From Mobula hypostoma (taxonomy: Eukaryota), in contig NC_086097.1 in the NCBI RefSeq assembly GCF_963921235.1, positions 31,932,001-31,996,000 of the forward strand: a stretch of DNA of 64,000 nucleotides. The letters are read 5' to 3'. Below are positions 10,721-57,716 of the stretch, piece after piece. How positions within the stretch are numbered: the first letter of the stretch is position 1; each line of letters opens with the position of its first letter. Under the pieces are notes generated by a model that saw only the letters and a list, made by a program, of their open reading frames with translations, ran no database searches and was not told where the DNA came from. The translations under genes and the position numbers were made by a program.

Positions 10721-11269
10721 TCTCCCTTGAACTTAACCCCCTCATTTTAAGTGCATTTTCCCCGGTTTGACTCACTATTTCTATATGTGTACCTATCAAA
10801 ATTTTTCTTAATGGTCTTGATGTGAAAATTTAGCCACAGTTTCACCAAATGCTGGAACAGGGTCTTCAGGCCTTTCTTCTGTTTGTTCACAGATCAGTCC
10901 ACCACAGCCCCAGATTTGCTCAGTAGCTTGGTGGGGATATCTAAATGTTCCACCCTCTCTGCCCCAGAGGTCTGACCTCTGAGCCGAGTCTCTGCCCTGA
11001 GTCTCTGCCCTCCACCACCCAGGTTCCAGCATCTCCTAACTGAGCAAGCATCTCTGCTTCTCATCCTTCTCTCTCTCCTGCTGGTCCTCCAGTCTCTCAA
11101 CACCCCCTTCTCCTCCCACCCCATCACCCACACACTTCTTCTGCTGGCTCCCTTCCCTTCCCCTCACCACTGTTCCTATCTGCCCTCCCACCTTCCCGAT
11201 GTGGCTTCATCCTCCACCTTCCTGTCCTATCAGGTACCACCATCAGTAGCCCTCTGTCACCTCCACCTC

Positions 11270-13225: not shown

Positions 13226-13309
13226 AGCTCTTGCTCCACCCCTTTCCCTCGCCTCTTTAAATTTACCATCTCTCCCTGTTTCTTTCCCCTTCCCCACCCA
13301 CTCTATCTT

Positions 13310-17200: not shown

Positions 17201-18636
17201 AGGGTTGGTGAGGGTTAAGGAGTGTGAGGGTTAGGATTGGTGAGGGTTAAGGATTGTGAGGGTTAGGGTTGGTGAGGGTTAGGGATGTGAGGGTTAGGGT
17301 TGGTGAGGGTTAGGGATGTGAGGGTTAAGGATTGTGAGGGTTAGGGTTGGTGAGGGTTAAGGATTGTGAGGGTTAGGGTTGGTGAGGGTTAGGGTTGGTG
17401 AGGGTTAGGGTTGGTGAGGGTTAAGGATTGTGAGGGTTAGGGTTGGTGAGGGTTAGGATTGTGAGGGTTAGGGTTGGTGAGGGTTAGGCATGTGAAAGTT
17501 AGGGTTGGTGAGGGTTAGGGATGTGAAGGTTAGGGTTGGTGAGGGTTAAGGATTGTGAGGGTTAAGGATTGTGAGGGTTAGGGTTGGTGAGGGTTAGGGT
17601 TGGTGAGGGTTAAGGATGGTGAGGGTTAGGGTTGGTGAGGGTTAGGGATGTGAGGGTTAAGGATTGTGAGGGTTAGGGTTGGTGAGGGTTAAGGATTGTG
17701 AGGGTTAGGGTTGGTGAGGGTTAGGGTTGGTGAGGGTTAAGGATTGTGAAGGTTAGGGTTGGTGAGAGTTAGTGATGTGAATGTTAAGGTTGGTGAGGGT
17801 CACAGATGGTGAGGGTTATGGATGTGAGGATTAGGGATGTGAGGGTTAATGATTGTGAGGGTTAGGGTTAGGGTTAGGGTTGGTGAGGGTTAAGGATTGT
17901 GAGGGTTAGGGTTGGTGAGGGTTAGGGTTAGGGTTGGTGAGGGTTAAGGATTGTGAGGGTCAGGGTTGGTTCGGGTTAGGGTTGGTGATGGTTAAGGATT
18001 GTGAGGGTTAGGGTTGGTGAGGGTTAGGGTTAGGGTTGGTGAGGGTTAAGGATTGTGAGGGTTAGGGTTGGTGAGGGTTAAGGATTGTGAGGGTTAGGGT
18101 TGGTGAGGGTTAGGGTTGGTGAGGGTTAGGGTTGGTGAGGGTTAAGGATTGTGAGGGTTAGGGTTGGTGAGGGTTAAGGATTGTGAGGGTTAGGGTTGGT
18201 GAGGGTTAGGGTTAGGGTTAGGGTTGGTGAGGGTTAAGGATTGTGAGGGTTAGGGTTGGTGAGGGTTAAGGATTGTGAGGGTTAGGGTTGGTGAGGGTTA
18301 GGGATGTGAGGGTTAAGGATTGTGAAGGTTAGGGTTGGTGAGGGTTAAGGTTGGTGAGGGTTAGGGTTGGTGAGGGTTAGGGTTAGGGTTAGGGTTAGGG
18401 ATGTGAGGGTTAGGGTTGGTGAGGGTTAGGGATGTGAGGGTTAAGGATTGTGAGGGTTAGGGTTGGTGAGGGTTAGGGATGTGAGGGTTAGGGTTAGGGT
18501 TAGGGTTAGGGTTGGTGAGGGTTAGGGATTGTGAGGGTTAGGGTTGGTGAGGGTTAGGGATGGTTGGTGAGTTGTAGGCATGCTGTTTTGGTGCTGGAAC
18601 TGCGTGGAAGCTCGCAGGCTGCCCCAGCACATCCTC
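14248..18636 (+). mobile_element. SINE split by an internal telomere-like array
   Basis: Head and core at 14248-14402 (GGTTTCCTCC...GGTTTCCTCCCACAT); body resumes at 18571 (GTTGTAGGCATGCT...GGCTGCCCCAGCACATCCTC); tail reappears at ~19356-19415 after another insert. Confidence 0.8.
14403..18571 (+). repeat. Interstitial telomere-like satellite, mostly 16-bp units GAGGGTTAGGGTTGGT / GAGGGTTAAGGATTGT, with short pure (TTAGGG)n runs
   Basis: Direct reading; (TTAGGG)4 runs at ~18377 and ~18488. Confidence 0.97.
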
Positions 18637-29584: not shown

Positions 29585-30075
29585 TGCTCTGTGTCTGACC
29601 CCAGTAGTGTCTAATGGGACAGTGTGGAGGGAGCTTCACCCTGTGGCTGACCTCAGGAGTGTGTGATGGAATAATATGGAGAGAGCTTCACTCTGTGTCT
29701 GACCCTGAGAGTGTGTGATGGGACAGTGTGGAGGGAGCTTCACTCTGTATCTGACTCTGGGAGTGTGTGATGGGACAGTGTGGAGGGAGCTTCACTCTGT
29801 ATCTGACTCTGGGAGTGTGTGATGGGACAGTGTGGAGGGAGCTTCACTCTGTGTCTGACCCTGGGAGTGTGTTATAGGACAGTGTGGAGGGAGCTTCACT
29901 CTGTGTCTGACCCTGAGAGTACAATGGGACAGTGTGGAGGGAGCTTCACTCTGTGTCTGACCCTGAGAGTACAATGGGACAGTGTGGAGGGAGCTTTATT
30001 CTGTGTCTGACCCTGAGAGTGTGATGGGACAGTGTGGAGGGAGTTTCACTCTGTATCTGACCCCAGGAGTGTGTG
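29585..30075. repeat. 52-bp minisatellite (GGGACAGTGTGGAGGGAGCTTCACTCTGTGTCTGACCCTGGGAGTGTGTGAT)
   Basis: Unit starts at 29720, 29772, 29824; some shorter variants. Confidence 0.95.
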
Positions 30076-30562
30076 ATGGGACTGTGTTTGACCCCAGGTG
30101 TGTGTGATGGGACTGTGTTTGATCCTGGGTGTGTGTGATGGGACTGTGTTTGACCCCAGCTGTGTGTGATGGGACTGTGTTTGATCCTGGGTGTGTGTGA
30201 TGGGACTGTGTTTGACCCCAGCTGTGTGTGATGGGACTGTGTTTGATCCTGGGTGTGTGCAATGGGACTGTGTTTGATCCTGGGTGTGTGTGATGGGACT
30301 GTGTTTGATCCTGGGTGTGTGTGTTGGGACTGTGTTTGATCCTGGGTGTGTGTGATGGGACTGTGTTTGACCCCAGCTGTGTGTGATGGGACTGTGTTTG
30401 ATCCCGGGTGTGTGTGATGGGACTGTGTTTGATCCTGGGTGTGTGTGATGGGACTGTGTTTAACCCCAGCTGTGTGTGATGGGACTGTGTTTGATCCTAG
30501 GTGTGTGTGATGGGACTGTGTTTGATCCTGGGTGTGTGCGATGGGACTGTGTTTGATCCTGG
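30076..30562. repeat. 31-bp minisatellite (GGGACTGTGTTTGATCCTGGGTGTGTGTGAT)
   Basis: About 15 tandem units directly continuing the 52-bp array. Confidence 0.95.
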
Positions 30563-30757
30563 ACTGTGTGACGGGGTGAGTTATCTCCAACATTTCCTGT
30601 ATTGTTGCTGCCCAACCTGCTGAATCCTGCCAGCCTTCTGCCTGATTCCTGAGCAGTTCCTGCATGGGGTGAGTTGCTGGCGATGTGTTTCTGGGTGTTG
30701 CAGGCAGATGTGGACCCTGCACAGTGCACCCAGTGCATGTTGTGTTTCTCTCGGCAG

Positions 30758-30896
30758 GCTTCGTGGAGCTGGACTTACACGACCAGGTTCAGCTGTTGGA
30801 GAGCTGCTGGTTGGAGATTCTGATGCTGGGGCTTATGTGGCGATCCATCGACTACCCTGGCAAGCTCTTCTTTGCTCCTGATCTCATCCTGGACAG
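30758..30896 (+). CDS. ESR2: Estrogen receptor beta-like, LBD exon
   Basis: tctctcggcag|GC...GACAG|gtgagg; 139 bp; (G)[45 protein letters not shown](R). Confidence 0.97.
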
Positions 30897-31261
30897 GTGA
30901 GGGGGTACAGTATGCTCCGACCTCTGACACTGGCCCTCTACCCCGTTCGGAGATGTGGCCAGTGAGAGGACAACTGGTCCTCCCTGCATACTTATGTTCC
31001 AAGCCCTAACCCTCTGGCTGTAATGTTCTATGGACAGTTCACTGGTGTACGTGGCTCCCCTGATTGTCAAGTTAAGACAGCGATCTTGCCTGTTTCCCTT
31101 AAATGTTTCACCTTTCACCCCTAACCTATGACCTCTGGTTGTAGTCCCACCCAATCTTAGTGAAAAAGCCTTCTTGCACTTACCCCATCTATACCCCTCA
31201 TACCTCTCCAGCTTTTTCCTGCTCCTGTGCAGTGGTCCCTCCAGACCAGGCTGTGAGGCAG

Positions 31262-31600
31262 TCAATTACAATGTTCTCCATGGTACATCTGTAGAAATTT
31301 GCATGAGTCTATGGTGACATAACGAGCCTCGTCAGACTCCTAATGAACTATAGCCACTGTCATGCCTTCTTTGTAATTGCATAAATATGTTGGACCCAGG
31401 ATAGATTCTCAGAGGGTGACAGCCAGGAAATTGAAACTGCTCACCCTTCCCACTTTAGATCCCTCAATGAGGATTGGTGTGTATTCTCTTGATATCCCCT
31501 TCCCGGGGCCCACAATCAATTCTTGGTCGTAGTGACATTGTGTGCAAGGTTACTGCTGTGACGCGACTCAAACTGTCGATCCATCTTGCTCCTGTATGCC
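31262..31600 (-). mobile_element. Rex1/Babar-like LINE, part downstream of the RT catalytic motif (left flank of the giant array)
   Basis: Reverse complement reads EAYRSKMDRQFE...SNLAHNV, then ILIEGSKVGRVSSFNFL and LSWVQHIYAITKKA, homologous to the LINE fragments at 3720-3950 and 22150-23060. Confidence 0.75.
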
Positions 31601-34600
31601 TCATCACCACCTGTACACTTCATCATCCTTTGTGGACCTCCTCATCACCACCTGTACACCTCATCGTCACCATCTGTACACCTCATCACCATCTGTACAC
31701 CTCATCACCATCTGTACACCACCTCATCATCATCTGTACACCTCATCGCCACCTGTACACCTCATCGCCACCTGTACAGCTCATCATCATCTGTACACCT
31801 CATCATCTGTACACCTCATCACCACCTGTACACCTCATCATCTGTACACCTCATCATCATCTGTACACCTCATCACCACCTGTACACCTCATCATCTGTA
31901 CACCTCATCATCATCTGTACACCACCTCGTCACCACCTGTACACCTCATTGTCACCATCTGTACAACTCATCACCATCTGTACACCACTTCATCATCTGT
32001 ACACCTCATCACCACCTGTACACCTCATCGTCACCTGTACACCTCATCATCACCTGTACACCACCTCATCACCATCTGTACACCTCATCACCATCTGTAA
32101 ACCTCGTCATCATCTCTACACCTCGTCATCATCTCTACACCTCGTCATCATCTGTACACCTCGTCATCATCTGTACACCTCATCACCATCTGTACACCTC
32201 ATCATCATCTGAACACCTCATGACCACCTGTACACATCATCACCTGTACACATCATCACCTGTACACATCATCACCTGTACACCTCATCACTTGTACACT
32301 ACACCACCTCACCTCACCACCTGTACACCTCATCACCTGTACACATCACTACCTGTACACCTCACCACCTGTACACCTCACCACCTGTACACCTCACCAC
32401 CTGTACACCTCACCACTTGTACACCTCACCACCTGTACATCTCGTCATCACCATCTATACACCTCATCATCATCTGTACACCTCATCACCATCTGTACAA
32501 CTCATCACCATCTGTACACCTCTTCATCAGGCCCTGTACACCTCATCAGCACTGTACACCTCATCACCACCTGTACACCTCATCACCATCTGTACACCTC
32601 ATCACCACCTGTACACCTCATCATCACCACCTGTACACCTCATCATCACCATCTGTACACCCCCTCATCACCACATGTACACCTGCTCGCCATCTGTACA
32701 CCTCCTCATCACCATCTGTACACCTCATCATCACAATTTGCACACCTCATCATTACCTGTACACCTCCTCATTACCATCTGTACACCCCTTCGTCACCAT
32801 CTGCACACCTCCCATCACCATTTGCACACCTCAGCATTACTATCTGTACACCTCACCACCTGTACACCTCACCACCTGTACACCTCACCACCTGTACACC
32901 TCACCACCTGTACACCTCACCACCTGTACACCTACACCACCTGTACACTACACTACCTGTACACCTCACCATCTGTACACCTCATCACCAGCTGTACACC
33001 TCATCACCAGCTGTATACCTCATCACCACCTGTACACCTCATCATCATCTGTACACCTCATCACCACCTGTACACCTCATCGTCATCTGTACACCTCATC
33101 ATCATCTGTACACCACCTCATCACCACCTGTACACCTCATCTTCACCATCTGTACAACTCATCACCATCTGTACACCTCATCACCATCTGTACACCTCAT
33201 CACCATCTGTACACCTCGTCATCATCTCTACACCTCGTCATCATCTCTACACCTCGTCACCATCTGTACACCTCATCATCATCTGAACACCTCATCACCA
33301 CCTGTACACCTCATCACCACCTGTACACTTCATCACCATCTGTACACTTCATCACCATCTGTACATCTCGTCACCATCTGTACATCTCGTCACCATCTGT
33401 ACACCTCGTCATCATCTGTACACCTCGTCATCATCTGTACACCTCGTCACCATCTGTACACCTCGTCATCATCTCTACACCTCGTCATCATCTCTACACC
33501 TCGTCACCATCTGTACACCTCATCATCATCTGAACACCTCATCACCACCTGTACACCTCATCACCACCTGTACACTTCATCACCATCTGTACACTTCATC
33601 ACCATCTGTACATCTCGTCACCATCTGTACATCTCGTCACCATCTGTACACCTCGTCATCATCTGTACACCTCGTCATCATCTGTACACCTCGTCATCAT
33701 CTCTACATCTCGTCATCATCTCTACACCTCGTCACCATCTGTACACCTCATCACCATCTGTACACCTCATCATCATCTGAACACCTCATGACCACCTGTA
33801 CACCTCATCATCACCATCTGTACACCCCCTCACCACCACCTGTACACCTCACCACCTGTACACCTCACCACCTGTACACCTCACCACCTGTACACCTCAC
33901 TACCTGTACACCTCACCACCTGTACACCTCACCACTTGTACACCTCACCACCTGTACACCTCACTACCTGTACACCTCACCACCTGTACACCTCACCACC
34001 TGTACACCTCACCACTTGTACACCTCACCACCTGTACACCTCACCACCTGTACACCTCACCACTTGTACACCTCACCACCTGTACACATCACCACCTGTA
34101 CACCTCACCACTTGTACACCTCACCACCTGTACACCTCACCACCTGTACACCTCACCACCTGTACACCTCATCATCTGTACACCTCATCACCACCTGTAC
34201 ACCTCATCACCATCTGTACACCTCATCACCACCTGTACACCTCATCATCATCTGTACACCTCATCACCATCTGTACAACTCATCACGATCTGTACACCTA
34301 CACCACCTGTACACCTCACCACCTGTACACCTCACCACCTGTACACCTCACCACCTGTACACCTCACCACCTGTACACCTCACCACTTGTACACCTCACC
34401 ACCTGTACACCTCACCACCTGTACACCTCACCTACCTGTACACCTCACCACCTGTACACCTCACTACCTGTACACCTCACCACCTGTACACCTCACCTAC
34501 CTGTACACCTCACCACCTGTACACCTCACCACTTGTACACCTACACCTCACCACCTGTACACCATCACCACCTGTACACCTCACCATTTGTACACCTCAC

Positions 34601-37600
34601 CATTACTATCTGTACACCTCATCATTACCATCTGTACACCTCATCATCACCATCTGTACACCTCACACCATCTGTACACCTCACACCATCTGTACACCTC
34701 ATCATCACAGCCTGTACACTTCATCACCACCTGTACACCTCATCACCACCTGTACACTTCATCACCATCTGTACACCTCATCATCATCTGTACACCACCT
34801 CATCACCATCTGTACACCTCATCATTTGTACACCTCATCACCACCTTTACACCTCATCACCATCTGTACACATCACCACCTGTACACCTCACCACCTGTA
34901 CACTACACCACCTGTACACTACACCACCTGTACACCTCACCACCTGTACACCTCAACCACCTTGTACACCTCACCACCTGTACACCTCACCACCTGTACA
35001 CCTCACCACCTGTACACATCACCACCTGTACACCTCACCACCTGTACACCTCACCACCTGTACACCTCACCACCTGTACACCTCACCACCTGTACACCTC
35101 ACCACCTGTACACCTCACCACCTGTACACCTCACCACCTGTACACCTCACCACCTGTACACCTCACCACCTGTACACCTCACCACCTGTACACCTCACCA
35201 CCTGTACACCTCACCACCTGTACACCTCACCACCTGTACACCTGTACACCTCACCACTGTACACCTCACCACCTGTACACCTCACCACCTGTACACCTCA
35301 CTACCTGTACACCTCACCACCTGTACACCTCACTACCTGTACACCTCACCACCTGTACACCTCACCACCTGTACACCTCACCACCTGTACACCTCACCAC
35401 CTGTACACCTCACCACCTGTACACCTCACCACTTGTACACTACACCACCTGTACACCTCACCACCTGTACACCTCACCACCTGTACACATCACCACCTGT
35501 ACATCACCACATGTACACCACCTCATCACCATCTGTACGCTTCCTCATCACCATCTGTACACCCCCTCATCACCACATGTACACCTCCGCATCACCACCT
35601 GTACACCACCTCATCACCATCTGTACACCTCACCACCTGTACACCTCACCACCTGTACACCTCACCACCTGTACACCTCACTACCTGTACACCTCACCAC
35701 CTGTACACCTCACCACTTGTACACCTCAACACCTGTACACCTCACCACCTGTACACCTCACCACTTGTACACCTCACCACTTGTACACCTCATCATTACT
35801 ATCTGTACACCTCATCATTACCATCTGTACACCTCATCATCACCATCTGTACACCTCATCAGCATCTGTACACCTCATCACCATCTGTACACCACCTCAT
35901 CAACATCTGTACACCTCATCACCACCTGTACACATCACCACCTGTACACCTCATCATCTGTACACCTCATCATCACCTGTACACCTCATCACCATCTGTA
36001 CACCTCATCATCACCATCTGTACACCTCATCACCATCTGTACACCTCATCACCATCTGTACACCTCATCACTATCTGTACACCTCATCATCATCTTTACA
36101 CCTCATCATCATCTGTACACCTCATCACCATCTGTACACCTCATCATCATCTCTACAGCTCATCATCATATGTACACCTCATCGTCATCATCTGTACACC
36201 TCATCAGCACCGGTACACCATCTCGTCACCACCTGTACACCTCATTGTCACCATCTGTACAACTCATCACCATCTGTACACCACCTCATCATCTGTACAC
36301 CACCTCATCATCTGTACACCTCATCACCACCTGTACACCTCATCACCACCTGTACACCTCATCATCACCTGTACACCACCTCATCACCATCTGTACACCT
36401 CATCACCATCTGTACACCTCGTCACCACCTGTACACCTCATCATCTCTACACCTCGTCACCACCTGTACACCTCACCACCTGTACATCTCACCACCTGTA
36501 CACATCACCACCTGTACACCTCACCACTTGTAAACCTCACCACCTGTACATCTCACTACCTGTAAACGTCAACACCTGTACACCTCACCACCTGTACACC
36601 TCACCACCTGTACACTACACTACCTGTACACCTCACCACCTGTACACTACACCACCTGTACACCTCACCACCTGTACACCTCACCTACCTGTACACATCA
36701 CCACCTATACACCTCATCATCATCTGTACACCTCATCATCTGTAAAACTCATCACCATCTGTAAACCTCTTCATCAGCACTGTACACCTCATCACCACCT
36801 GTACACCTCATCATCACCTGTGGACCTCCTCACCACCTGTACACCTCATCATCACCTGTAGACCTCCTCACCATCTGTACACCTCATCATGACAATTTGC
36901 ACACCTCATCATTACTATCTGTACACACATTACCATCTGTACACCCCTTCATCACCATCTGCACACCTCCCATCACCATTTGCACACCTCATCATTACTA
37001 TCTGTACACCTCATCATTACCATCTGTACATCTCCTCATCAGCATCTGTAAACTTCATCACCATCTGTACACCTCATCATCATCTGTACACCACCTCATC
37101 ACCATCTGTACACCACCTCATCACCATCTGTACACCTCATCATCTGTACACCTCATCACCACCTTTACACCTCATCACCATCTGTACACATCACCGCCTT
37201 TACACCTCATCACCATCTGTACACCTCATCACCACCTGTACACCTCATCATCACCATCTGTACACCCCCTCACCACCATCTGTACACCTCATCATTACCA
37301 TCTGTACATCTCCTCATCAGCATCTGTACACTTCATCACCATCTGTACACCTCATCATCATCTGTACACCACCTCATCACCATCTGTACACCTCATCATC
37401 TGTACACCTCATCACCACCTGTACACCTCATCACCATCTGTACACCTCATCACCACCTTTACACCTCACCACCTGTACACCTCACTACCTGTAAACCTCA
37501 ACACCTGTACACCTCACCACCTGTACACCTCACTACTTGTACACTACACCACCTTTACACCTCACCACCTGTACACCTCACCACCTGTACACCTCACCAC

Positions 37601-40600
37601 CTGTACACCTCACTACCTGTACACCTCACCACCTGTACACCTCACCACCTGTACACCTCACCACCTGTACACCTCACCACCTGTACACCTCACCACCTGT
37701 ACACCTCACCACCTGTACACCTCACCACCTGTACACCTCACCACCTGTACACCTCACCACCTGTACACCTCACCACCTGTACACCTCACCACCTGTACAC
37801 CTCACTACCTGTACACCTCACCACCTGTACACTACACTACCTGTACACCTCACCACCTGTACACCTCACTACTTGTACACCTCACTACCTGTACACCTCA
37901 CCACCTGTACACCTCACCACTTGTACACCTCACCACCTGTACACCTCACCACCTGTACACCTCACCACCTGTACACCTCACCACCTGTACACCTCACCAC
38001 CTGTACACCTCACCACCTGTACACCTCACCACTTGTACACCTCATCACTTGTACACCTCATCACCGCCTGTACACCTCATCATCATCTGTACACCTCATC
38101 ACCACCTGTACACCTCACCACTTGTACACCTCACCACCTGTACACCTCACCACCTGTACACCTCACCACTTGTACACCTCACCACCTGTACACCTCACCA
38201 CCTGTACACCTCACCACCTGTACACCTCACCACTTGTACACCTCACCACCTGTACACCTCACCACTTGTACACCTCACCACCTGTACACCTCATCACCTG
38301 TACACATCACCGCCTGTACACCTCACCACTTGTACACATCACCACCTGTACACCTCACCACTTGTACACCTCACCACCTGTACACCTCATCACCACCTGT
38401 ACACCTCCTCATCAACATCTATACACCTCCTCATCACCACCTGTACACCTCCTCATCATCTGGACACCTCATCACCATCTGTACACCTCCTCATCACCAC
38501 ATGTACACCACCTCATCACCACCTGTACACCTCACTACCTGTAAACCTCAACACCTGTACACCTCACCACCTGTACACCTCACTACCTGTACACCTCACC
38601 ACCTGTACACCTCACCACCTGTACACCTCACCACCTGTACACCTCACTACCTGTACACCTCACCACCTGTACACCTCATCAGCATCTGTACACCTCGTAA
38701 CCATCTGTACACCTCATCGTCACCATCTGTACACCTCGTCGTCACCATCTCTACACCTCGTCGTCACCATCTCTACACCTCATCATCATCTGTACACCTC
38801 AGCACCATCTGTACACCACCTCATCACCATCTGTACACCTCATCACAAACTGTACACCTCATCATCATCTGTACACCTCATCACCACCTGTACACCTCAT
38901 CACCACCTGTACACCTCATCACCATCTGTACACCTCATCAGCATCTGTACACCTCGTAACCATCTGTACACCTCATCGTCACCATCTGTACACCTCGTCG
39001 TCACCATCTCTACACCTCGTCGTCACCATCTCTACACCTCATCATCATCTGTACACCTCAGCACCATCTGTACACCTCCTCATCACCATCTGTACACCTC
39101 ATCAGCATCTGTACACCTCGTAACCATCTGTACACCTCATCGTCACCATCTGTACACCTCGTCGTCACCATCTCTACACCTCGTCGTCACCATCTCTACA
39201 CCTCATCATCATCTGTACACCTCAGCACCATCTGTACACCACCTCATCACCATCTGTACACCTCATCACAAACTGTACACCTCATCATCATCTGTACACC
39301 TCATCACCACCTGTACACCATCTCGTCACCACCTGTACACCTCATTGTCACCATCTGTACAACTCATCACCATCTGTACACCGTAACCATCTGTACACCT
39401 CATCGTCACCATCTGTACACCTCGTCGTCACCATCTCTACACCTCGTCGTCACCATCTCTACACCTCATCATCATCTGTACACCTCAGCACCATCTGTAC
39501 ACCACCTCATCACCATCTGTACACCTCATCACAAACTGTACACCTCATCACCACCTGTACACCTCATCACCACCTGTACACCTCATCACCATCTGTACAC
39601 CTCATCACCATCATCTGTACACCTCATCATCACCATCTGTACACCTCATCACCATCTGTACACCTCACCACCTGTACACCTCACCACCTGTACACCTCAC
39701 CACCTGTACACCTCACCACCTGTACACCTCACCACCTGTACACCTCACCACCTGTACACCTCACCACCTGTACACCTCACCACCTGTACACCTCACCACC
39801 TGTACACCTCACCACCTGTACACCTCACCACCTGTACACTACACCACCTGTACACCTCACCACTTTACACCTCACCACCTGTACACCTCACTACCTGTAA
39901 ACCTCACCACCTGTACACCCTTTCATCACCATCTGTACACCCTTTCATCACCATCTGTACACTTCCTCATCACCATCTGTACACCCCCTCATCACCATCT
40001 GTACACTTCCTCACCACCATCTGTACACCCCTTCATCACGCCCTGTACACCTCATCATCATCATCCGTACACCCCCTCATCACCACATGTACACCTCCAC
40101 ATCACCACCTGTACACCAGCTCATCACCATCTGTACACTTCCTCATCACCATCTGTACACCCCCTCATCACCATCTGTACACTTCCTCATCACCATCTGT
40201 ACACTTCCTCATCACCACCTGTACACCACCTCATCACCATCTGTACACCCCCTCAGCACCATCTGTACACTTCCTCATCACCATCTGTACACTTCCTCAT
40301 CACCATTTGTACACCCCCTCATCACCATCTGTACACCTCCTCATCACCACATGTATACCACCTCATAACCACATGTACACCACCTCATCACCATCTGTAC
40401 GCTTCCTCATCACCATCTGTACACCTCCTCATCACCACATGTACACCTCCTCATCACCACCTGTACACCACCTCATCACCATCTGTACACCCCCTCAGCA
40501 CCATCTGTACACCTCATCATTACAATTTGCGCACCTCATCATTACTATCTGTACACCTCCTCATCACCATCTGTACACCCCTTCATCACCATCTGCACAC

Positions 40601-43600
40601 CTCCCATCACCATCTGTACACCTCATCATCCTCATTTGCACACCTCATCATTACTATCTGTACACCTCATCATTACCATCTGTACATCTCCTCATCAGCA
40701 TCTGTACACCTCATCAGCATCTGTACACCTCATCACCATCTGTACACCACCTCATCATCATCTGTACACCTCATCACCACCTGTACACCTCATCACCACC
40801 TGTACACCTCATCATCTGTACACCTCATCATCACCTGTACACCTCATCACCATCTGTACACCTCATCATCACCATTTGTACACCTCATCATCACCATCTG
40901 TACACCTCATCACTATCTGTACACCTCATCATCATCTGTACACCTCATCACCATCTGTACACCTCATCACCATCTGTACACCTCATCATCATCTCTACAC
41001 CTCATCATCATATGTACAACTCATCGTCATCATCTGTACACCTCATCAGCACCTGTACACCATCTCGTCACCACCTGTACACCTCATTGTCACCATCTGT
41101 ACAACTCATCACCATCTGTACACCACCTCATCATCTGTACACCACCTCATCACCACCTGTACACCTCATCATCACCTGTACACCACCTGTACACCTCATC
41201 ACCATCTGTACACCTCATCACCATCTGTACACCTCATCACCATCTGTACACCTCATGACCACCTGTACACATCATCACCTGTACACCTCATCACCACCAA
41301 GTGTACACCTCAGCACCACCTGTACACCTCATCACCATCTGTATAGCTCAACATCACCATCAGTACACCTCATCATCACCATCAGTACACCTCCTGATGA
41401 TCATCTGTACACCTCGCCATCACCATCTCTACACCTCATCATTATCTGTACACCTCATCATCACCATCTATACACCTCATCATCATCTGTACACCTCATC
41501 ATCTGTAAAACTCATCACCATCTGTAAACCTCTTCATCAGCACTGTACACCTCATCACCACCTGTACACCTCATCTTCACCTGTGGACCTCCTCACCACC
41601 TGTACACCTCATCATCACCTGTAGACATCCTCACCATCTGTACACCACCTCATCACCATCTGTACACCACCTCATCACCATCTGTACACCTCATCATCTG
41701 TACACCTCATCACCACCTTTACACCTCATCACCATCTGTACACATCACCACCTTTACACCTCATCACCATCTGTACACCTCATCACCACCTGTACACCTC
41801 ATCATCACCATCTGTACACCTCATCATCACCATCTGTACACCCCCTCACCACCATCTGTACACCCCCTCATCACCACATGTACACCTCCTCGCCATCTGT
41901 ACACCTCCTCATCACAACCTGTACACCTCCTCATCACCATCTGTACACCCCTTCATCACCATCTGTACACCCCTTCATCACCATCTGTACACTTCCTCAT
42001 CACCATCTGTACACCCCCTCATCACCATCTGTACACTTCCTCATCACCATCTGTACACCCCTTCATCATCACCTGTACATCTCATCATCACCATCCGTAC
42101 ACCCCCTCATCACCACATGTACACCTCCTCGCCATCTGTACTCCTCCTCATCACCACCTGTACACCTCCTCATCACCACCTGTACACCTCCTCATCACCA
42201 TCTGTACACCCCTTCATCACCATCTGTACACCCCTTCATCACCATCTGTACACTTCCTCATCACCATCTGTACACCTCATCACCATCTGTACACTTCCTC
42301 ATCACCATCTGTACACCCCCTCATCACCACCTGTACATCTCATCATCACCATCCGTACACCCCCTCACCACATGTACACCTCCTCGCCATCTGTACACCT
42401 CCTCATCACCACCTGTACACCTCCTCATCACCATCTGTACACCCCTTCATCACCATCTGTACACCCCTTCATCACCATCTGTACACTTCCTCATCACCAT
42501 CTGTACACCCCCTCATCACCATCTGTACACTTCCTCATCACCATCTGTACACCCCTTCATCATCACCTGTACATCTCATCATCACCATCCGTACACCCCC
42601 TCATCTCCACATGTACACCTCCTCATCACCATTTGTACACCACCACATCACCATCTGTACACCCCCTCTGCATCATCTGTACACTTCCTCATCACCATCT
42701 GTACACCCCCTCATCACCATCTGTACACCTCCTCATCACCATCTGTACACTTCATCACCATCTGTACACCTCGTCATCACCATTTGTACACCTCGTCGTC
42801 ACCATCTCTACACCTCGTCATCACCATCTCTACACCTCATCATCATCTGTACACCTCAGCATCATCTGTACACCACCTCATCACCATCTGTACACCTCAT
42901 CACAAACTGTACACCTCATCATCATCTGTACACCTCATCATCATCTGTACACCTCATCACCACTTGTACACCTCACTTGTACACTACACCACCTGTACAC
43001 CTCACCACCTGTACACCTCACCACCTGTACACCTCACCACCTGTACACCTCACCACCTGTACACCTCACCACCTGTACACCTCACCACCTGTACACCTCA
43101 CCACTTGTACACCTCACCACCTGTACACCTCACCACCTGTACACCTCCTCATCACCACCTGTACACCTCCTCATCACCACCTGTACACCTCATCACCATC
43201 TGTACACCTCCTCATCACCATCTGTACACCTCATCAGCATCTGTACACCTCGTAACCATCTGTACACCTCATCGTCACCATCTGTACACCTCGTCGTCAC
43301 CATCTCTACACCTCGTCGTCACCATCTCTACACCTCATCATCATCTGTACACCTCAGCACCATCTGTACACCACCTCATCACCATCTGTACACCTCATCA
43401 CAAACTGTACACCTCATCATCATCTGTACACCTCATCACCACCTGTACACCTCATCACCACCTGTACACCTCATCACCATCTGTACACCTCATCAGCATT
43501 TGTACACCTCGTAACCATCTCTACACCTCGTCGTCACCATCTCTACACCTCATCATCATCTGTACACCTCAGCACCATCTGTACACCACCTCATCACCAT

Positions 43601-46600
43601 CTGTACACCTCATCACAAACTGTACACCTCATCACCACCTGTACACCTCATCACCACCTGTACACCTCATCACCATCTGTACACCTCACCACTTGTACAC
43701 CTCACCACCTGTACACCTCACCACCTGTACACCTCACCACCTGTACACCTCACCACCTGTACACCTCACCACCTGTACACCTCACTACCTGTACACCTCA
43801 CCACCTGTACACCTCACCACCTGTACACCTCACCACCTGTACACCTCACCACCTGTACACCTCACCACTTGTACACCTCACCACCTGTACACCTCACCAC
43901 CTGTACACCTCACCACCTGTACACCTCACCACTTGTACACCTCACCACCTGTACACCTCACCACCTGTCATCACCATCTGTCACACTTCCTCACCACCAT
44001 CTGTACACCCCTTCATCACGCCCTGTACACCTCATCATCCGTACACTACACCACCTGTACACCTCACCACTTGTACACCTCAACACTTGTACACTACACC
44101 ACCTGTACACCTCACCACCTGTACACCTCACCACCTGTACACATCACCACCTGTACACCTCACCACCTGTACACCTCACCACCTGTACACCTCACCACCT
44201 GTACACCTCACCACCTGTACACCTCACCACCTGTACACCTCACCACCTGTACACCTCACCACCTGTACACCTCACCACTTGTACACCTCACCACCTGTAC
44301 ACCTCACCACTTGTACACCTCACCACCTTTACACCTCACCACCTGTACACCTCACCACCTGTACACCTCACCACCTGTACACCTCACCACCTGTACACCT
44401 CACCACCTGTACACCTCACCACCTGTACACCTCACCACCTGTACACCTCACCACCTGTACACCTCACCACCTGTACACCTCAACACCTGTACACCTCACC
44501 ACCTGTACACCTCACTACCTGTACACCTCACCACCTGTACACTACACCACCTGTACACCTCACCACTTGTACACCTCAACACTTGTACACCTCACCACCT
44601 GTACACCTCACCACCTGTACACCTCACCACCTGTACACCTCACCACCTGTACACCTCACCACCTGTACACCTCATCACCTGTACACCTCACCACCTGTAC
44701 ACCTCACCACTTGTACACCTCACCACCTGTACACCTCACCACCTGTACACCTCACCACCTGTACACCTCACCACTTGTACACTACACCACCTTTACACCT
44801 CACCACCTGTACACCTCATCACCTGTACACATCACCGCCTGTACACCTCATCATCTGTACACCTCATCATCACCTGTACACCTCATCACCATCTGTACAC
44901 CTCATCATCACCATTTGTACACCTCATCATCACCATCTGTACACCTCATCACCATCTGTACACCTCATCACTATCTGTACACCTCATCATCATCTGTACA
45001 CCTCATCACCATCTGTACACCTCATCACCATCTGTACACCTCACCACCTGTACACATCACCACCTGTACACCTCACCACTTGTACACCTCACCACCTGTA
45101 CACCTCACCACCTGTACACTACACCACCTGTACACCTCACCACTTTACACCTCACCACCTGTACACCTCACTACCTGTAAACCTCAACACCTGTACACCT
45201 CACCACCTGTACACCTCACCACCTGTACACCTCACCACCTCTACACCTCATCATTATCTGTACACCTCATCATCACCATCTATACACCTCATCATCATCT
45301 GTACACCTCATCATCTGTAAAACTCATCACCATCTGTAAACCTCTTCATCAGCACTGTACACCTCATCACCACCTGTACACCTCATCTTCACCTGTGGAC
45401 CTCCTCACCACCTGTACACCTCATCATCACCTGTAGACATCCTCACCATCTGTACACCACCTCATCACCATCTGTACACCACCTCATCACCATCTGTACA
45501 CCTCATCATCTGTACACCTCATCACCACCTTTACACCTCATCACCATCTGTACACATCACCACCTTTACACCTCATCACCATCTGTACACCTCATCACCA
45601 CCTGTACACCTCATCATCACCATCTGTACACCCCCTCACCACCATCTGTACACCCCCTCATCACCACATGTACACCTCCTCGCCATCTGTACACCTCCTC
45701 ATCACAACCTGTACACCTCCTCATCACCATCTGTACACCCCTTCATCACCATCTGTACACCCCTTCATCACCATCTGTACACTTCCTCATCACCATCTGT
45801 ACACCCCCTCATCACCATCTGTACACTTCCTCATCACCATCTGTACACCCACTACCTGTACACCTCACCACCTGTACACCTCACCACTTGTACACTACAC
45901 CACCTGTACACCTCACCACTTTACACCTCACCACCTGTACACCTCACTACCTGTAAACCTCACCACCTGTACACCTCACCACCTGTACACCTCACCACCT
46001 GTACACCTCACCACCTGTACACCTCACCACCTGTACACCTCACCACCTGTACACCTCACCACCTGTACACCTCACCACCTGTACACCTCACCACCTGTCA
46101 CACCCTGTACACCTCATCCATCTGTACACTTCCTCATCACCATCTGTACACCCCCTCATCACCATCTGTACACTTCCTCATCACCATCTGTACACCCCTT
46201 CATCATCACCTGTACATCTCATCATCACCATCCGTACACCCCCTCATCACCACATGTACACCTCCTCGCCATCTGTACACCTCCTCATCACCACCTGTAC
46301 ACCTCCTCATCACCATCTGTACACCCCTTCATCACCATCTGTACACCCCTTCATCACCATCTGTACACCTCATCATCACCATCTATACACCCCCTCACCA
46401 CCATCTGTACACCCCCTCATCACCACATGTACACCTCCTCGCCATCTGTACACCTCCTCATCACCACCTGTACACCTCCTCATCACCATCTGTACACCCC
46501 TTCATCACCATCTGTACACCCCTTCATCACCATCTGTACACCTCATCACCATCTGTACACCTCATCATCATCTGTACACCACCTCATCACCATCTGTACA

Positions 46601-49600
46601 CCTCATCACCATCTGTACACATCACCACCTTTACACCTCATCACCACCTTTACACCTCATCACCACCTTTACACCTCATCACCACCTGTACACCTCATCA
46701 TCACCATCTGTACACCCCCTCACCACCATCTGTACACCCCCTCATCACCACATGTACACCTCCTCGCCATCTGTACACCTTCTCATCACAACCTGTACAC
46801 CTCCTCATCACCATCTGTACACCCCTTCATCACCATCTGTACACTTCCTCATCACCATCTGTACACCCCCTCATCACCATCTGTACACTTCCTCATCACC
46901 ATCTGTACACCCCTTCATCATCACCTGTACATCTCATCATCACCATCCGTACACCCCCACATCACCACATGTACACCTCCTCGCCATCTGTACTCCTCCT
47001 CATCACCATCTGTACACCCCTTCATCACCATCTGTACACCCCTTCATCACCATCTGTACACTTCCTCATCACCATCTGTACACCCCCTCATCACCATCTG
47101 TACACTTCCTCATCACCATCTGTACACCCCTTCATCATCACCTGTACATCTCATCATCACCATCCGTACACCCCCTCATCACCACATGTACACCTCCTCG
47201 CCATCTGTACACCTCCTCATCACCACCTGTACACCTCCTCATCACCACCTGTACACCTCCTCATCACCATCTGTACACCCCTTCATCACCATCTGTACAC
47301 CCCTTCATCACCATCTGTACACTTCCTCATCACCATCTGTACACCCCCTCATCACCATCTGTACACTTCCTCATCACCATCTGTACACCCCTTCATCATC
47401 ACCTGTACATCTCATCATCACCATCCGTACACCCCCTCATCTCCACATGTACACCTCCTCATCACCATTTGTACACCACCACATCACCATCTGTACACCC
47501 CCTCTGCATCATCTGTACACTTCCTCATCACCATCTGTACACCCCCTCATCACCATCTGTACACCTCCTCATCACCATCTGTACACTTCATCACCATCTG
47601 TACACCTCGTCATCACCATCTGTACACCTCGTCATCACCATCTCTACACCTCGTCGTCACCATCTCTACACCTCGTCATCACCATCTCTACACCTCATCA
47701 ATATCTGTACACCTCAGCATCATCTGTACACCACCTCATCACCATCTGTACACCTCATCACAAACTGTACACCTCATCATCATCTGTACACCTCATCACC
47801 ACTTGTACACCTCACCACATCTGTACACCTCACCACCTGTACACCTCACCACTTTACACCTCACCACCTGTACACCTCACACCACCTGTACACCTCACCA
47901 CCTCACCACCTCACCACCTGTACACCTCACCACCTGTACACCTCACCACCTGTACACCTCACCACCTGTACACCTCACCACCTGTACACCTCACCACCTG
48001 TACACCTCACCACCTGTACACCTCACCACCTGTACACCTCACCACCTGTACACTCACCACTGTACACCTCACCACCTTTACACCTCACCACCTGTACACC
48101 TCATCACCTGTACACATCACCGCCTGTACACCTCACCACTTGTACACCTCACCACCTGTACACCTCACCACCTGTACACTACACCACCTGTACACCTCAC
48201 CACTTTACACCTCACCACCTGTACACCTCACTACCTGTAAACCTCAACACCTGTACACCTCACCACCTGCACACCTCCCATCACCATCTGTACACCCCCT
48301 CATCACCACATGTACACCTCCCATCACCATCTGTACACCTCATCATCACCATCTGTACACCTCCTCATCACCATCTGTACATCTCATCAGCATCTGTACA
48401 CCTCGTAACCATCTGTACACCTCATCGTCACCATCTGTACACCTCACCACCTGTACACCTCACTACCTGTACACCTCACCACCTGTACACCTCACCACCT
48501 GTACACCTCACCACCTGTACACCTCACCACTTGTACACCTCACCACCTGTACACCTCACCACCTGTACACCTCACCACCTGTACACCTCACCACCTGTAC
48601 ACCTCATCATAAACTGTACACCTCATCATCATCTGTACACCTCATCACCACCTGTACACCTCATCACCACCTGTACACCTCATCACCATCTGTACACCTC
48701 ATCACCATCATCTGTACACCTCATCATCACCATCTGTACACCTCATCACCATCTGTACACCTCATCACCATCTGTACACCTCCTCATCACCACCTGCACA
48801 CCTCCCATCACCATCTGTACACCCCCTCATCACCACATGTACACCTCCCATCACCATCTGTACACCTCATCATCACCTTCTGTACACCTCCTCATCACCA
48901 TCTGTACATCTCATCAGCATCTGTACACCTCGTAACCATCTGTACACCTCATCATCACCATCTGTACACCTCCTCATCACCATCTGTACATCTCATCAGC
49001 ATCTGTACACCTCGTAACCATCTGTACACCTTATCGTCACCATCTGTACACCTCCTGATGATCATCTGTGCACCTCACTACCTGTACACCTCACCACCTG
49101 TACACCTCACCACTTTACATCACCATCTGTACACCTCCTCGTCACCATCTCTACACCTCGTCGTCACCATCTCTACACCTCGTCGTCACCATCTCTACAC
49201 CTCGTCGTCACCATCTCTACACCTCGTCGTCACCATCTCTACACCTCATCATCATCTGTACACCTCAGCACCATCTGTACACCACCTCATCACCATCTGT
49301 ACACCTCATCACAAACTGTACACCTCATCATCATCTGTACACCTCATCACCACCTGTACACCTCATCACCACCTGTACACCTCCTCATCACCATCTGTAC
49401 ACCTCATCACCACCATCTGTACACCTCATCACCATCTGTACACCTCATCACCATCTGTACACCTCATCATCACCATCTGTACACCTCATCACCATCTGTA
49501 CACCTCCTCATCACCACCTGCACACCTCCCATCACCATCTGTACACCCCCTCATCACCACATGTACACCTCCCATCACCATCTGTACACCTCATCATCAC

Positions 49601-52600
49601 CATCTGTACACCTCCTCATCACCATCTGTACATCTCATCAGCATCTGTACACCTCGTAACCATCTGTACACCTCATCGTCACCATCTGTACACCTCACCA
49701 CCTGTACACCTCACCACCTGTACACCTCACCACCTGTACACCTCACCACCTGTACACCTCACCACTTTACACCTCACCACCTGTACACCTCACTACCTGT
49801 ACACCTCACCACCTGTACACCTCACCATCTGTACACCTCATCATCATTTGTACACCTCAGCACCACCTGTACACCTCACCACCTGTACACCTCACCACTT
49901 GTACACCTCACCACTTGTACACTACACCACCTGTACACCTCACCACTTGTACACCTCACCACCTGTACACATCACCACCTGTACACCTCACCACTTGTAC
50001 ACCTCACCACCTGTACACCTCACCACCTGTACACCTCACCACCTGTACACCTCACCACTTGTACACCTCACCACCTGTACACCTCACCACCTGTACACCT
50101 CACCACCTGTACACCTCACCACCTGTACACCTCACCACCTGTACACCTCACCACTTGTACACCTCACCACCTGTACACCTCATCACAAACATCTGTACAC
50201 CTTATCACCATCTGTACGCCTCATCAGCACCTGTACACCTCATCATCACCACCTGTGCACCTCTTCATCACCACCTGTACACCTCCTCATCACCACATGT
50301 ACACCTCATCACCACACGTACACCTCATCACCACATGTAATGAACCGGAGGTGATTAGAGAGATTGAGGTGAAGGAACCCTTAGGAGACAGTGATCATAA
50401 CATGATTGAGTTCACCGTGAAATTTGAAAAAGAGAAGCCGAAATCTGATGTGTCGGTATTTCAGTGGAGTTAAGGAAATTACAGTGGCATGAGAGAGGAA
50501 CTGGCCAAAGTTGACTGGAAAGGGACACTGGTGGGAAGGACGGCAGAGCAGCAGTGGCTGGAGTTTATGCGAGAAGTGAGGAAGGTGCAAGACAGGTATA
50601 TTCCAAAAAAGAAGAAATTTTCGAATGGAAAAAGGATGCAACCATGGTTGACAAGAGAAGTCAAAGCCAAAGTTAAAGCAAAGGAGAGGGCATACAAGGA
50701 AGCAAAAATTAGTGGGAAGACAGAGGATTGGGAAGTTTTTGAAACCTTACAAAAGGAAACCAAGAAGGTCATTAAGAGGGAAAAGATTAACTATTAACTA
50801 AGGAAGCTAGCAAATAGTATCAAAGAGGATACTAAAAGCTTTTTCAAGTATATAAAGAGTAAAAGACAGGCGAGAGTAGATATAGGACCAATAGAAAATG
50901 ATGCTGGAGAAATTGTAATGGGAGATAAGGAGATGGCAGAGGAACTGAACGACTATTTTGCATCAGTCTTCACTGAGGAAGACATCAGCAGTATACCGGA
51001 CACTCAAGGGTGGCAGGGAAGAGGAGTGTGCGCAGTCACAATTACAACAGAGAAAGTACTCAGGAAGCTGAATAGTCTAAAGGTAGATAAATCTCCCGGA
51101 CCAGATGGAATGCAACCGCGTGTTCCGAAGGAAGTAGCTGTGGAGATTGCAGAGGCATTAGCGATGATCTTCCAAAAGTCGATAGATTCTGGCATGGTTC
51201 CGGAGGACTGGAAGATTGCTAATGTCACTCCGCTATTTAAGAAGGGGGCAAGGAAGCAAAAAGGAAATTATAGACCTGTTAGCTTGACATCGGTCGTTGA
51301 GAAGTTGTTGGAGTCGATTGTCAAGGATGAGGTTACAGAGTACCTGGAGGCATATGACAAGATAGGCAGAACTCAGCATGGATTCCTTAAAGGAAAATCC
51401 TGCCTGACAAACCTATTACAATTTTTTGAGGAAATTACCAGTAGGCTAGACAAGGGAGATGCAGTGGATGTTGTATATTTGGATTTTCAGAAGGCCTTTG
51501 ACAAGGTGCCACACATGAGGCTACTTAACAAGGTAAGAGCCCATGGAATTACGGGAAAGTTACATACGTGGATAGAGTGTTGGCTGATTGGCAGGAAACA
51601 GAGAGTGGGAATAAAGGGATCCTATTCTGGTTGGCTGCCAGTTACCAGTGGTGTTCCACAGGGGTCCGTGTTGGGGCCACTTCTTTTTACATTGTACATC
51701 AACGATTTGGATTATGGAATAGATGGCTTTGTGACTAAGTTTGCTGACGATACAAAGATAGGTGGAGGGGCCGGTAGTGCTGAGGAAACGGAGAGTCTGC
51801 AGAGAGACTTGAATAGATTGGAAGAATGGGCAGAGAAGTGGCAAATGAAATACAATGTTGGAAAGTGTATGGTTATGCACTTTGGCAGAAATAATAAACG
51901 GGCAGACTATTATTTAAATGGGGAAAGAATTCAAAGTTCAGAGATGCAACAGGACTTGGGAGTCCTCGTACAGGATACCCTTAAGGTGAACCTCCAGGTT
52001 GAGTCAGTAGTGAAGAAGGCGAATGCAATGTTGGCATTCATTTCTAGAGGAATAGAGTATAGGAGCAGGGATGTGATGTTGAGGCTCTATAAGGTGCTGG
52101 TGAGACCTCACTTGGAGTACTGTGGGCAGTTTTGGTCTCCTTATTTAAGAAAGGATGTGCTGACATTGGAGAGGGTACAGAGAAGATTCACTAGAATGAT
52201 TCCGGGTTTGAGAGGGCTTTCATATGAGGAACGTTTGTCTGCTCTTGGACTGTATTTCTGGGAGTTTAGAAGAATGAGGGGAGACCTCATAGAAACATTT
52301 CGAATGTTGAAAGGCATGGACAGAGTGGTTGTGGCAAAGTTGTTTCCCATGATGGGGGAGTCTAGTACGAGAGGGTTTGACTTAAGGATTGAAGGCTGCC
52401 CATTCAGAACAGAAATGCGAAGAAATTTTTTTAGTCAGAAGGTGGTGAATCTTTGGAATTTGTTGCCACGGGCGACAGTGGAGTTCAAGTCATTGGGTGT
52501 ATTTAAGGCAGAGATTGATAGGTATCTGAGTAGCCAGGGCATCAAAGGTTATGGTGAGAAGGCGGGGGAGTGGGACTAAATGGGAGAATGGATCAGCTCA

Positions 52601-53470
52601 TGATAAAATGGCGGAGCAGACTCGATGGGCCGAATGGCCAACTTTTGCTCCTTTGTCTTATGTACACCTCATCACCACCACCTGTACACCCCATCATCAC
52701 CACCTGTACACCTCATCACCATCTGTACACCTCATCACCACCTGTACACCCCATCATCACCACCTGTGCACCTCATCACCATCTGTACACCTCATCACCA
52801 TCTGTACACCTCATCACCTGTACACCTCATCACCACCTGTACACCCCATCATCACCACCTGTACACCTCATCACCATCTGTACACCTCATCACCATCTGT
52901 ACACCTCACCACCACCTGTACACCCCATCATCACCACCTGTACACCTCATCACCATCTGTACACCTCATCACCACCTGTACACCTCATCATCACCACCTG
53001 TACACCTCATCATCACCATCTGTACACCCCCTCATCACCACATGTACACCTGCTCGCCATCTGTACACCTCCTCATCACCATCTGTACACATCATCACCA
53101 TCTGTACACCTCATCACCATCTGTACACCTCACCACCACCTGTACACCCCATCATCACCACCTGTACACCTCATCACCATCTGTACACCTCATCACCACC
53201 TGTACACCCCATCATCACCACCTGTACACCTCATCACCATCTGTACACCTCACCACCACCTGTACACCCCATCATCACCACCTGTACACCTCATCACCAC
53301 CTGTACACCCCATCATCACCACCTGTACACCTCATCACCACCTGTACACCTCATCACCATCTGTACACCTCATCACCACCTGTACACCCCCTCATCACCA
53401 CATGTACACCTCCTCACCCTCTGTAGACCTCCTCATTACCACCACCTGTGCAGCTCCTCATCACCATCTG
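31592..53470. repeat. Giant satellite (~19.6 kb excluding the CR1 insert): TGTACA anchor plus a variable CAY-rich spacer; units of 16, 19 or 22 bp
   Basis: TGTACACCTCACCACC, TGTACACCTCATCACCATC and TGTACACCTCCTCATCACCATC units throughout; strongly G-poor + strand. Confidence 0.98.
50340..52659 (+). mobile_element. 5'-truncated CR1 LINE with near-intact ORF2 (end of endonuclease, RT, C-terminus) inserted in the satellite
   Basis: LGDSDHNMIEF; YRPVSLTS; YLDFQKAFDKVPH; GVPQGSVLGP; KFADDTK; one reading frame 50340-52579 with two in-frame TAA (50471, 50795); ATGTA at both junctions (50335-50339, 52660-52664). Confidence 0.97.
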
Positions 53471-53540
53471 AAATCCTGCCAACAATAGTTGTATCATTAA
53501 TAAGTTTATAGATGGCATTTGAGCTGTGCCTAAGTACACC
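53455..53540 (-). mobile_element. Rex1/Babar-like LINE RT catalytic region (right flank of the giant array)
   Basis: Reverse complement reads RHSSNAIYKLINDTTIVGRISDGDEE, a decayed IYKFADDTTI motif (compare 3850-3895). Confidence 0.8.
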
Positions 53541-53544
53541 TTTA

Positions 53545-53810
53545 GCCTCATTTGCTCCAAATTTTCTGGTCTTGTCCTCCTTTGCTCCAAAGAAAAAAGC
53601 CCCAGCTCAATCAACCTTTTGTTATAAGGCACGCTCCCTAATCCTGGCAGAATCCTCATAAATCTCCTCCTCTGCACCCTCTCTAAATTCCACATCCTTT
53701 GTATAATGAGGCAAACAGAACTGAACACAAAATTCCAAGTGTGGTCTAATAAGGGTTTAGTTGAACCACAACGTTACCTTGCGGCCCTTGAACTCAATCC
53801 CCTGACTAAA
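53545..53810 (-). mobile_element. CR1 LINE 3' fragment
   Basis: LERVQRRRFMRILPGLGSVPYNKRLIELGLFSLEQRR. Confidence 0.8.
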
Positions 53811-54609: not shown

Positions 54610-55250
54610 TCGCTCTCCTGCCCTCCCCTGACCCTTGACCCCCCCCATGGACCCTCGGGGCCCCCCCCTCACTCCCCGGACCCTCGCCCCACCCCTCCCT
54701 GGGCACTCGCAACCCCCCACCCCCCGGACCCTCACCCCCCCCCACTCCCCGGATCCTGACCCCCCCACTCCCTGGATCCTGACCCTCACACTCCCCGGAC
54801 CCTCGCCCCTCCCCCCACTCCCCAGACCCTTGGACCCCCCAGATCCTCGCAACCCCACTCCCTGGACCCTTACCCCCCTCCCCGGATCCTCAAGGTCCCA
54901 CTCCCCAGACTCTCGCCCCCCCCACCTCCAGACCCTCGCCCCTCCCCCACTCCCCCACTCTCCGGACCCTGTCTCTCCCCACTCCCCAGACCCTGGCTCT
55001 CCCCACTCCCCAGACCCTGGCCCCCCAACTCTCCGGACCCTGGCTCTCCCCACTCCCCGGACCCTGGCCCCCCCACTCTCTGGACCCTCGCCTCCCCCCA
55101 CTCTCCGGACCCTCGCCTCCCCCCACTCCCCTGACCCTCGCCCCCCCCCCCACTACCCGGACCCTGGCCCCCCCACTCCCTGGACCCTCGCTCCCCGCTA
55201 CTCCCCAGATCCTCGCTCCCCGCTACTGCCCAGCCCCTCGCTCTCTGCCT
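54610..55250. repeat. C-rich ~21-bp degenerate minisatellite (CCCCCCACTCCCCGGACCCTCG)
   Basis: Direct reading; G-run rich on the - strand. Confidence 0.9.
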
Positions 55251-57582: not shown

Positions 57583-57716
57583 AGATGATGGGCAGTGTGT
57601 CGAAGGCATCCTGGAGATCTTTGACATGTTGCTGGCTACGACGTCAAGGTTCCGTGAGCTGAAGCTACAGCACAATGAGTACCTCTGCCTGAAGGCAATG
57701 GTTTTACTCAACTCCA
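57583..57716 (+). CDS. ESR2: Estrogen receptor beta-like, LBD exon
   Basis: ctgcag|A...TCCA|gtgagt; 134 bp; [44 protein letters not shown], nearly identical to human ER-beta [44 protein letters not shown]. Confidence 0.97.

Follow-up and report, generated by a model that had tools for sequence, protein, structure and literature searches.

A minisatellite of about 1,020 units in a dead LINE copy of an ESR2-like intron, and its probable growth in place

An intron of an ESR2-like gene is largely occupied by short tandem units, whose outer edges on both sides adjoin remnants of a LINE. The question raised by this locus is whether such an array was multiplied in place from a few bases of LINE reverse transcriptase (RT) coding sequence, or was born elsewhere and brought in. 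Comparisons within the window (the whole stretch of 64,000 nucleotides analysed here), with the 3.48-Gb genome and with related organisms point strongly to the former. With high confidence we regard the array as a minisatellite confined to one locus, with about 1,020 units, that probably grew in place within a dead LINE by a chance slip duplication followed by slippage and unequal exchange, and that probably serves no function.

Host intron, array and nested CR1 element

The features of the locus, in window positions, are these:

30758 to 30896, plus strand: ESR2-like (oestrogen receptor beta) ligand-binding-domain exon (Pfam Hormone_recep, E 9.5e-10; AG and GT ends)
31205 to 31592, minus strand: 3' portion of the host LINE, a dead copy, from the RT C-terminal region onward, forming the left flank of the array (77-81% alike to 29 paralogs)
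31593 to 50339, plus strand: main array, interleaved blocks of 16-, 19- and 22-bp units and block duplications on the multi-kb scale (TRF, unit map)
31593 to 31611, plus strand: first unit, keeping TGTATG where most units have TGTACA (sequence, unit map)
50340 to 52659, plus strand: 5'-truncated CR1-type LINE inside the array (RVT_1 frame, paralogs, ATGTA on both sides)
52661 to 53468, plus strand: right segment of the main array, 38 parsed units (TRF, unit map)
53469 to 53532, minus strand: 5' stub of the host LINE with a decayed RT motif, LIND for the family's FADD (paralog alignment)
57583 to 57716, plus strand: following ESR2-like exon (translation and acceptor; 3' end counted from the translation)

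Compared with PDB, the upstream exon has oestrogen receptor beta on top (75 bits), with chains named oestrogen receptor or oestrogen receptor alpha at 67-71 bits. The intron hosting the array extends from 30897 to 57582 (26,686 bp) and the array accounts for 73% of it, which bears out the initial annotation in describing the array as most of a 26.7-kb ER-beta intron. As this locus shows, an intron of about 5 kb can reach 27 kb through one local event.

The same intron contains a C-rich array of 23-25-bp units (54660-55243), and in the short intron directly upstream a 52-bp array runs into a 31-bp array (29587-30570), GTGTGTGATGGGAC being common to both. Tandem repeats make up 24% of the window even without the main array. 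A G-rich array of 16-bp units (GTGAGGGTTAGGGTTG), 4.2 kb long, lies at 14406-18564, where a dispersed repeat ends; two of seven paralogs of the repeat on its left continue into the right flank, so this gene likely contains a second array that expanded where it lies. At 11269-13228, a 28-bp and then a 101-bp array (17.8 copies, 98% matches) begin at the end of another dispersed repeat (272 candidates), which parts of the unit resemble. Related 44-, 65- and 109-bp arrays of TCACTGTGTAACTGTACAGAG words are present at 1-1189, 7892-7973 and 8538-8886.

The main array totals about 19.6 kb of head-to-tail units, which come in lengths of 16, 19 and 22 bp. TRF calls it at 31591-50339 and 52661-53435 with 83% matches. 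Parsing anchored on TGTACAC yielded 985 and 38 units, 1,023 altogether, with 212 distinct sequences; the 16-bp class has 374 members, the 19-bp class 296 and the 22-bp class 298. The class consensuses are TGTACACCTCACCACC (16 bp), TGTACACCTCATCACCATC (19 bp) and TGTACACCTCCTCATCACCATC (22 bp), from which the units of each class diverge by 3.6%, 7.0% and 8.9%, respectively. As earlier proposed, the two shorter units correspond to the 22-bp unit with triplets deleted. TGTACA starts 908 of the 1,023 units; the dinucleotide following TGTA is TG in the first unit, CA in most units and CG in three. Long open frames across the array were dismissed as a by-product of stop-poor units.

The array is not continuous: a CR1-type LINE that had passed unmentioned interrupts it. 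This element of about 2.3 kb is bordered by a repeated ATGTA (50335-50339 and 52660-52664), contains a 593-aa frame with RVT_1 (E 7.7e-32) and is 94-96% alike to 11 paralogs ending in TCTTATGG tails. It differs from the paralog majority at 29 of 795 positions and the paralogs themselves are 1.8-3.8% off, so the CR1 is much younger than the host LINE. The 593-aa RT frame (50798-52579) survives free of stops in an element 3.6% away from the majority of its kin; further upstream the frame is broken.

The host LINE, its seed and the unexpanded copies

A genome search with the left flank gave 9,528 first-look candidates; scoring covered 40 of them, and 29 copies besides the window were retrieved. 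In 24 of the 29 paralogs the right-flank BLAST match comes directly after the left-flank match, with a single 22-bp seed between them. Of the remaining five paralogs, three are continuous by eye without a BLAST match, one reaches the right flank after a 270-bp gap and one breaks off. Joined together, the two flanks therefore form one contiguous LINE copy, as had been predicted, and the minus-strand LINE peptides quoted for them are present in the translation. The limits of the remnant needed correction, from 31262-53540 to about 31205-53532 according to the paralogs. The dead copy is alike to the family majority at 346 of 406 positions on the left and 76 of 86 on the right.

The KFADD motif and the dispersed truncated copies identify the host element as a non-LTR retrotransposon, which, from the style of its motif, may belong to the Rex1/Babar clade. 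A degraded paralog frame has RT clusters as its top Atlas matches (0.93-0.95); in Pfam the same frame gives ALKBH8_N alone, RVT_1 being absent. A literature search on DUF1891 brought up nothing relevant to the clade. In another copy of the host LINE, two identical seed matches lie 144 bases apart (G000:C36:77282048 and 77282192), likely because a longer stretch containing the seed was duplicated in tandem.

Across the seed, the majority of 37 family copies reads KFADDTTIVGRISDGDEEAYRSEID, or as a peptide KFADDTTIVGRISDGDEEAYR, with KFADD; the seed accordingly starts eight residues past the catalytic DD. Its dinucleotide is TG in 14 of the 37 copies, CG in 8, CA in 4, TA in 2 and something else in 4 (5 unread), a spread that fits an ancestral CpG. 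The consensus of the 22-bp class differs from the family majority in 2 of 22 letters and is present unchanged in single-seed copies. Both edges of the array are in LINE register to about one base. In the LINE family the seed is bounded by CTGTA and CTGAA, which share three exact letters and are alike in 4 of 5.

Three dimer patterns, exact except for IUPAC letters so that decayed arrays escape them, were searched in the 3.48-Gb genome. All matches of the first (80/80), of the second (232/232) and of a degenerate 22-bp dimer (19/19) fall inside the window, and the search for other arrays that had been recommended thus finds the array unit not to be dispersed. Arrays at several loci, the mark of a dispersed or heterochromatic satellite family, were not among these matches. 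The label "satellite" hence has to be given up: with head-to-tail units in the 10-100-bp range at one locus, the array is a single-locus minisatellite.

In 544 other LINE copies one seed is followed by the normal flank. The nearness of the seed to the RT catalytic motif, which the initial annotation had noted, is therefore without visible effect. A hotspot at this LINE site was ruled out, as no second duplicated seed occurs among the pattern matches. Nor is the TGTACA palindrome a sufficient cause, for 167 of the 544 single-seed copies carry it unexpanded. CTGTA follows the seed in ten LINE copies, of which this one alone has an array; the other nine are point variants, all single, which speaks against a perfect 5-bp microhomology as the trigger. 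Since single-seed copies carrying either trait stay unexpanded, neither the palindrome nor the 5-bp end repeat suffices.

The orthologous site and the history of the array

Seventeen runs from five studies, with no RNA run among them in a search of DNA kind, contain part of window positions 30575-31600, and six of them were compared. Most informative is relative D, about 13% diverged, in which a contig of 1,173 bp (run X13, depth 8.74) spans the exon and both LINE flanks. It aligns to 30739-31080 (38 differences in 342 bases) and 31162-31450 (43 in 289); a contig equal to it in both length and depth aligns to 53470-53565 (13 in 96), the left- and right-flank alignments being matched by run, length and depth. 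It extends 33 bases past the LINE end into locus-specific DNA. Between record positions 891 (window 31450) and 1058 the spacing in D is 167, where one seed predicts 166; the corresponding spacing in the window is 22,020. A similar right-flank piece occurs in run X15, from the same sample. Judged by the spacing of its flanks, the D site is an empty site with room for one seed. The comparison of orthologous sites that had been called for thus yields a relative without the array, and fewer units, as growth in place implies, in one outgroup.

Relative B is about 1% diverged (5 differences in 511 bases). In the bin 31648-31680, within the first regular units, the summed depths, which are not copy numbers, are 4,140 against a single-copy 15 in A, 26,396 against 48 in B and 28 against 8.7 in D. 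B possesses array units at high depth, with no contig bridging flank and array among those listed. In A, contigs from short reads cross the left junction with a depth hundreds of times single-copy, sample S1 possibly being the source of the assembly itself and hence not independent. Organism C (run X12, 98 million letters) is too thin for judgement, and organism E, compared at the right junction only, gave no orthologous piece among the matches listed. The CR1 insertion likely predates the split of A and B.

Collinear flanks, a single locus and an empty ortholog together uphold the central claim of the initial annotation, that the array arose in place from RT coding sequence. We propose the following course of events. 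The LINE was inserted and 5'-truncated before the split from D, which has the LINE at the same site. After that split the 22-bp seed would have doubled once, likely aided by the CTG microhomology of 3-4 bp at its ends. At this first doubling the seed probably still had its CpG, as suggested by TG in the first unit against CA in most units and CG in three. Slips in the CCT/CAT/CAC triplet run of the seed may then have produced the 19- and 16-bp units, whose sequence relation to the 22-bp unit is plain. Copying of single units and of multi-unit blocks followed, over distances of 0.2-10 kb, presumably by unequal exchange or gene conversion. The CR1 landed inside the array, and exchange probably continued across it.

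The later steps are recorded in the array itself. Exact blocks of 8-18 units, up to 385 bp, reappear 0.2-10.5 kb away, and several positions share rare diagnostic units in register, which indicates growth by block copying together with single-unit slips. Polar growth from one end was rejected: singleton counts are 20 of 104 for the first bin of 2 kb and range from 2 to 18 in each of the others, forming no clear gradient. One block of 163 bp, containing a unit present only twice, is exact at 32561-32723 and 52928-53090, 20.4 kb apart and on opposite sides of the CR1. At the apparent age of the CR1 we estimate that about 6-11 differences would be expected in this block, so exchange after the insertion likely reached across the CR1, although this pair stands out as the best among many possible ones and the argument depends on the date of the CR1.

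The TGTACA palindrome may have favoured the CA variant through weak pairing of neighbouring units. Mean folding energies over 47 tiles of 200 bp are -9.8/-12.0 kcal/mol, those of the CG state -4.0/-7.1 and those of the TG state -2.3/-7.6. Against shuffles, the predicted hairpins reach z values of -1.4 to -1.75 in four of six folds and +0.5 and +1.2 in the other two; pairing between neighbours is thus predicted to be weak and unremarkable.

An older array, born at or soon after the LINE insertion (for example by RT slippage) and collapsed to one unit in D, is very improbable. The split between TG in the first unit and CA in the rest, with its suggestion of an intact CpG at the first duplication, would favour such an early date, and initiation may be tied to retrotransposition, according to the part of PMC3389668 consulted. 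Against it, the spacing in D equals one seed to within a base, and an intact CpG needs no early date, because 8 of 37 paralogs keep theirs today.

Another reading gives the array a role acquired after its birth. YCAY is a NOVA site, and the sense strand has 2,495 of them in the array (127.5 per kb; elsewhere in the intron 16.7), while AG is scarce there (2.7 per kb, against 76.5). RNA so rich in YCAY and branch-point-like sequence and so poor in AG might bind splicing factors and tune the splicing or timing of ESR2, an array born by chance being now kept; intronic VNTRs can affect splicing, as reported for ABCA7 (PMC5954066). We think this very unlikely, for the YCAY/AG pattern comes straight from the LINE seed, relative D does without the array, and the units turn over freely, with so many types. 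Equally slight is the chance of the full chain, in which CpG decay would turn TGTACG into the palindrome TGTACA, neighbouring units would pair, the array would run away to 20 kb and some 2,500 YCAY would alter ESR2 splicing or timing. If true, RT coding sequence would have given rise to a regulatory element whose earlier and later states are both available. The sequence itself gives no sign of function for the array.

Birth elsewhere as a dispersed satellite, with later insertion or copying into the LINE through likeness to the seed, is extremely unlikely: dispersed satellites occur in eukaryote genomes and unplaced satellite blocks may be missing from the assembly, but no dimer pattern matches outside the window, both edges keep the LINE register and the first unit has a CpG-decay state of its own. 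An assembly artefact as the source of the array's length is hardly credible either, for, difficult as repeats are to assemble and with no compared record spanning the array, the distinct units stand in complex order, a CR1 with its target duplication lies among them and contigs of A, subject to the reservation on S1, bridge the left junction.

Comparison with known systems

The locus is a teaching-quality record of the birth of a minisatellite, in which one can still read the seed and its two flanks, unexpanded paralogs by the hundred, the ortholog without the array, the units in a near relative and, inside the array, a CR1 clock. A literature search found no publication on it, a weak test given that the search did not name ESR2. 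Mouse Ms6-hm, Hm-2 and (GGCAGA)n arrays are very long and unstable. In the consulted part of PMC9659126, Ms6-hm and Hm-2 (from MaLR LTR) and the B1-derived (GGCAGA)n are, as here, short-unit arrays from inside a retroelement, but their units are shorter and stem from non-coding parts of the parent. Satellites derived from LINE ORF2, namely chicken HinfI/SCR1 (CR1), Phodopus PROsat and seal Pvc 20 (both L1 ORF2), are described in the same text; they share with the present array the origin of tandem DNA from a coding part of ORF2. Those are named families, whereas the present 16-22-bp unit occupies one intronic locus with the parent flanks kept and an empty ortholog. Elasmobranch genome papers, in the parts consulted, handle tandem repeats as bulk classes only.

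Microhomology-mediated tandem duplication is presented as a birth route across life by Wei et al. 2026 (PMC13167724, consulted in part), and the Haber-Louis model, as described in PMC3389668, has direct repeats of 5-10 bp bounding the seed. As in both, a single-copy segment bounded by short direct repeats may here have doubled and then expanded. The difference lies in a microhomology of only 3-4 bp, below the range of the Haber-Louis model, and in nine paralogs that are single despite a perfect 5-bp repeat.

The closest parallels are human TE-derived minisatellites. The survey of Ahmed and Liang 2012 (PMC3389668), in the part consulted, counts 7,276 TE-derived repeats, 23% of those examined, with 601 from L1, and describes their expansion by local duplication, the start or drive of growth being unexplained for 94% of the surveyed cases. 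The array resembles these minisatellites in a unit made of a TE piece and overlapping a TE copy, in local duplication, in its single locus and in an outgroup where it is absent or shorter. Their definition requires a unit at least 70% alike to the TE and an overlap of one period or more with a TE copy; here 2 of 22 letters are off the family majority and the array lies inside one collinear LINE. The array would not pass their filter of at least 95% inter-unit identity (83% TRF matches). Human Alu-derived arrays average 2.3-2.4 units in that survey, compared with about 1,020 here, in three length classes and with a nested CR1. If further cases in this genome stand up to scrutiny, a genome-wide set of dated births could test what starts and drives minisatellite growth, and that set would be a larger result than this locus. 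The birth of minisatellites from TEs is already well known; the present array is an example unusual in its size and clarity, larger and better documented than most of its kind.
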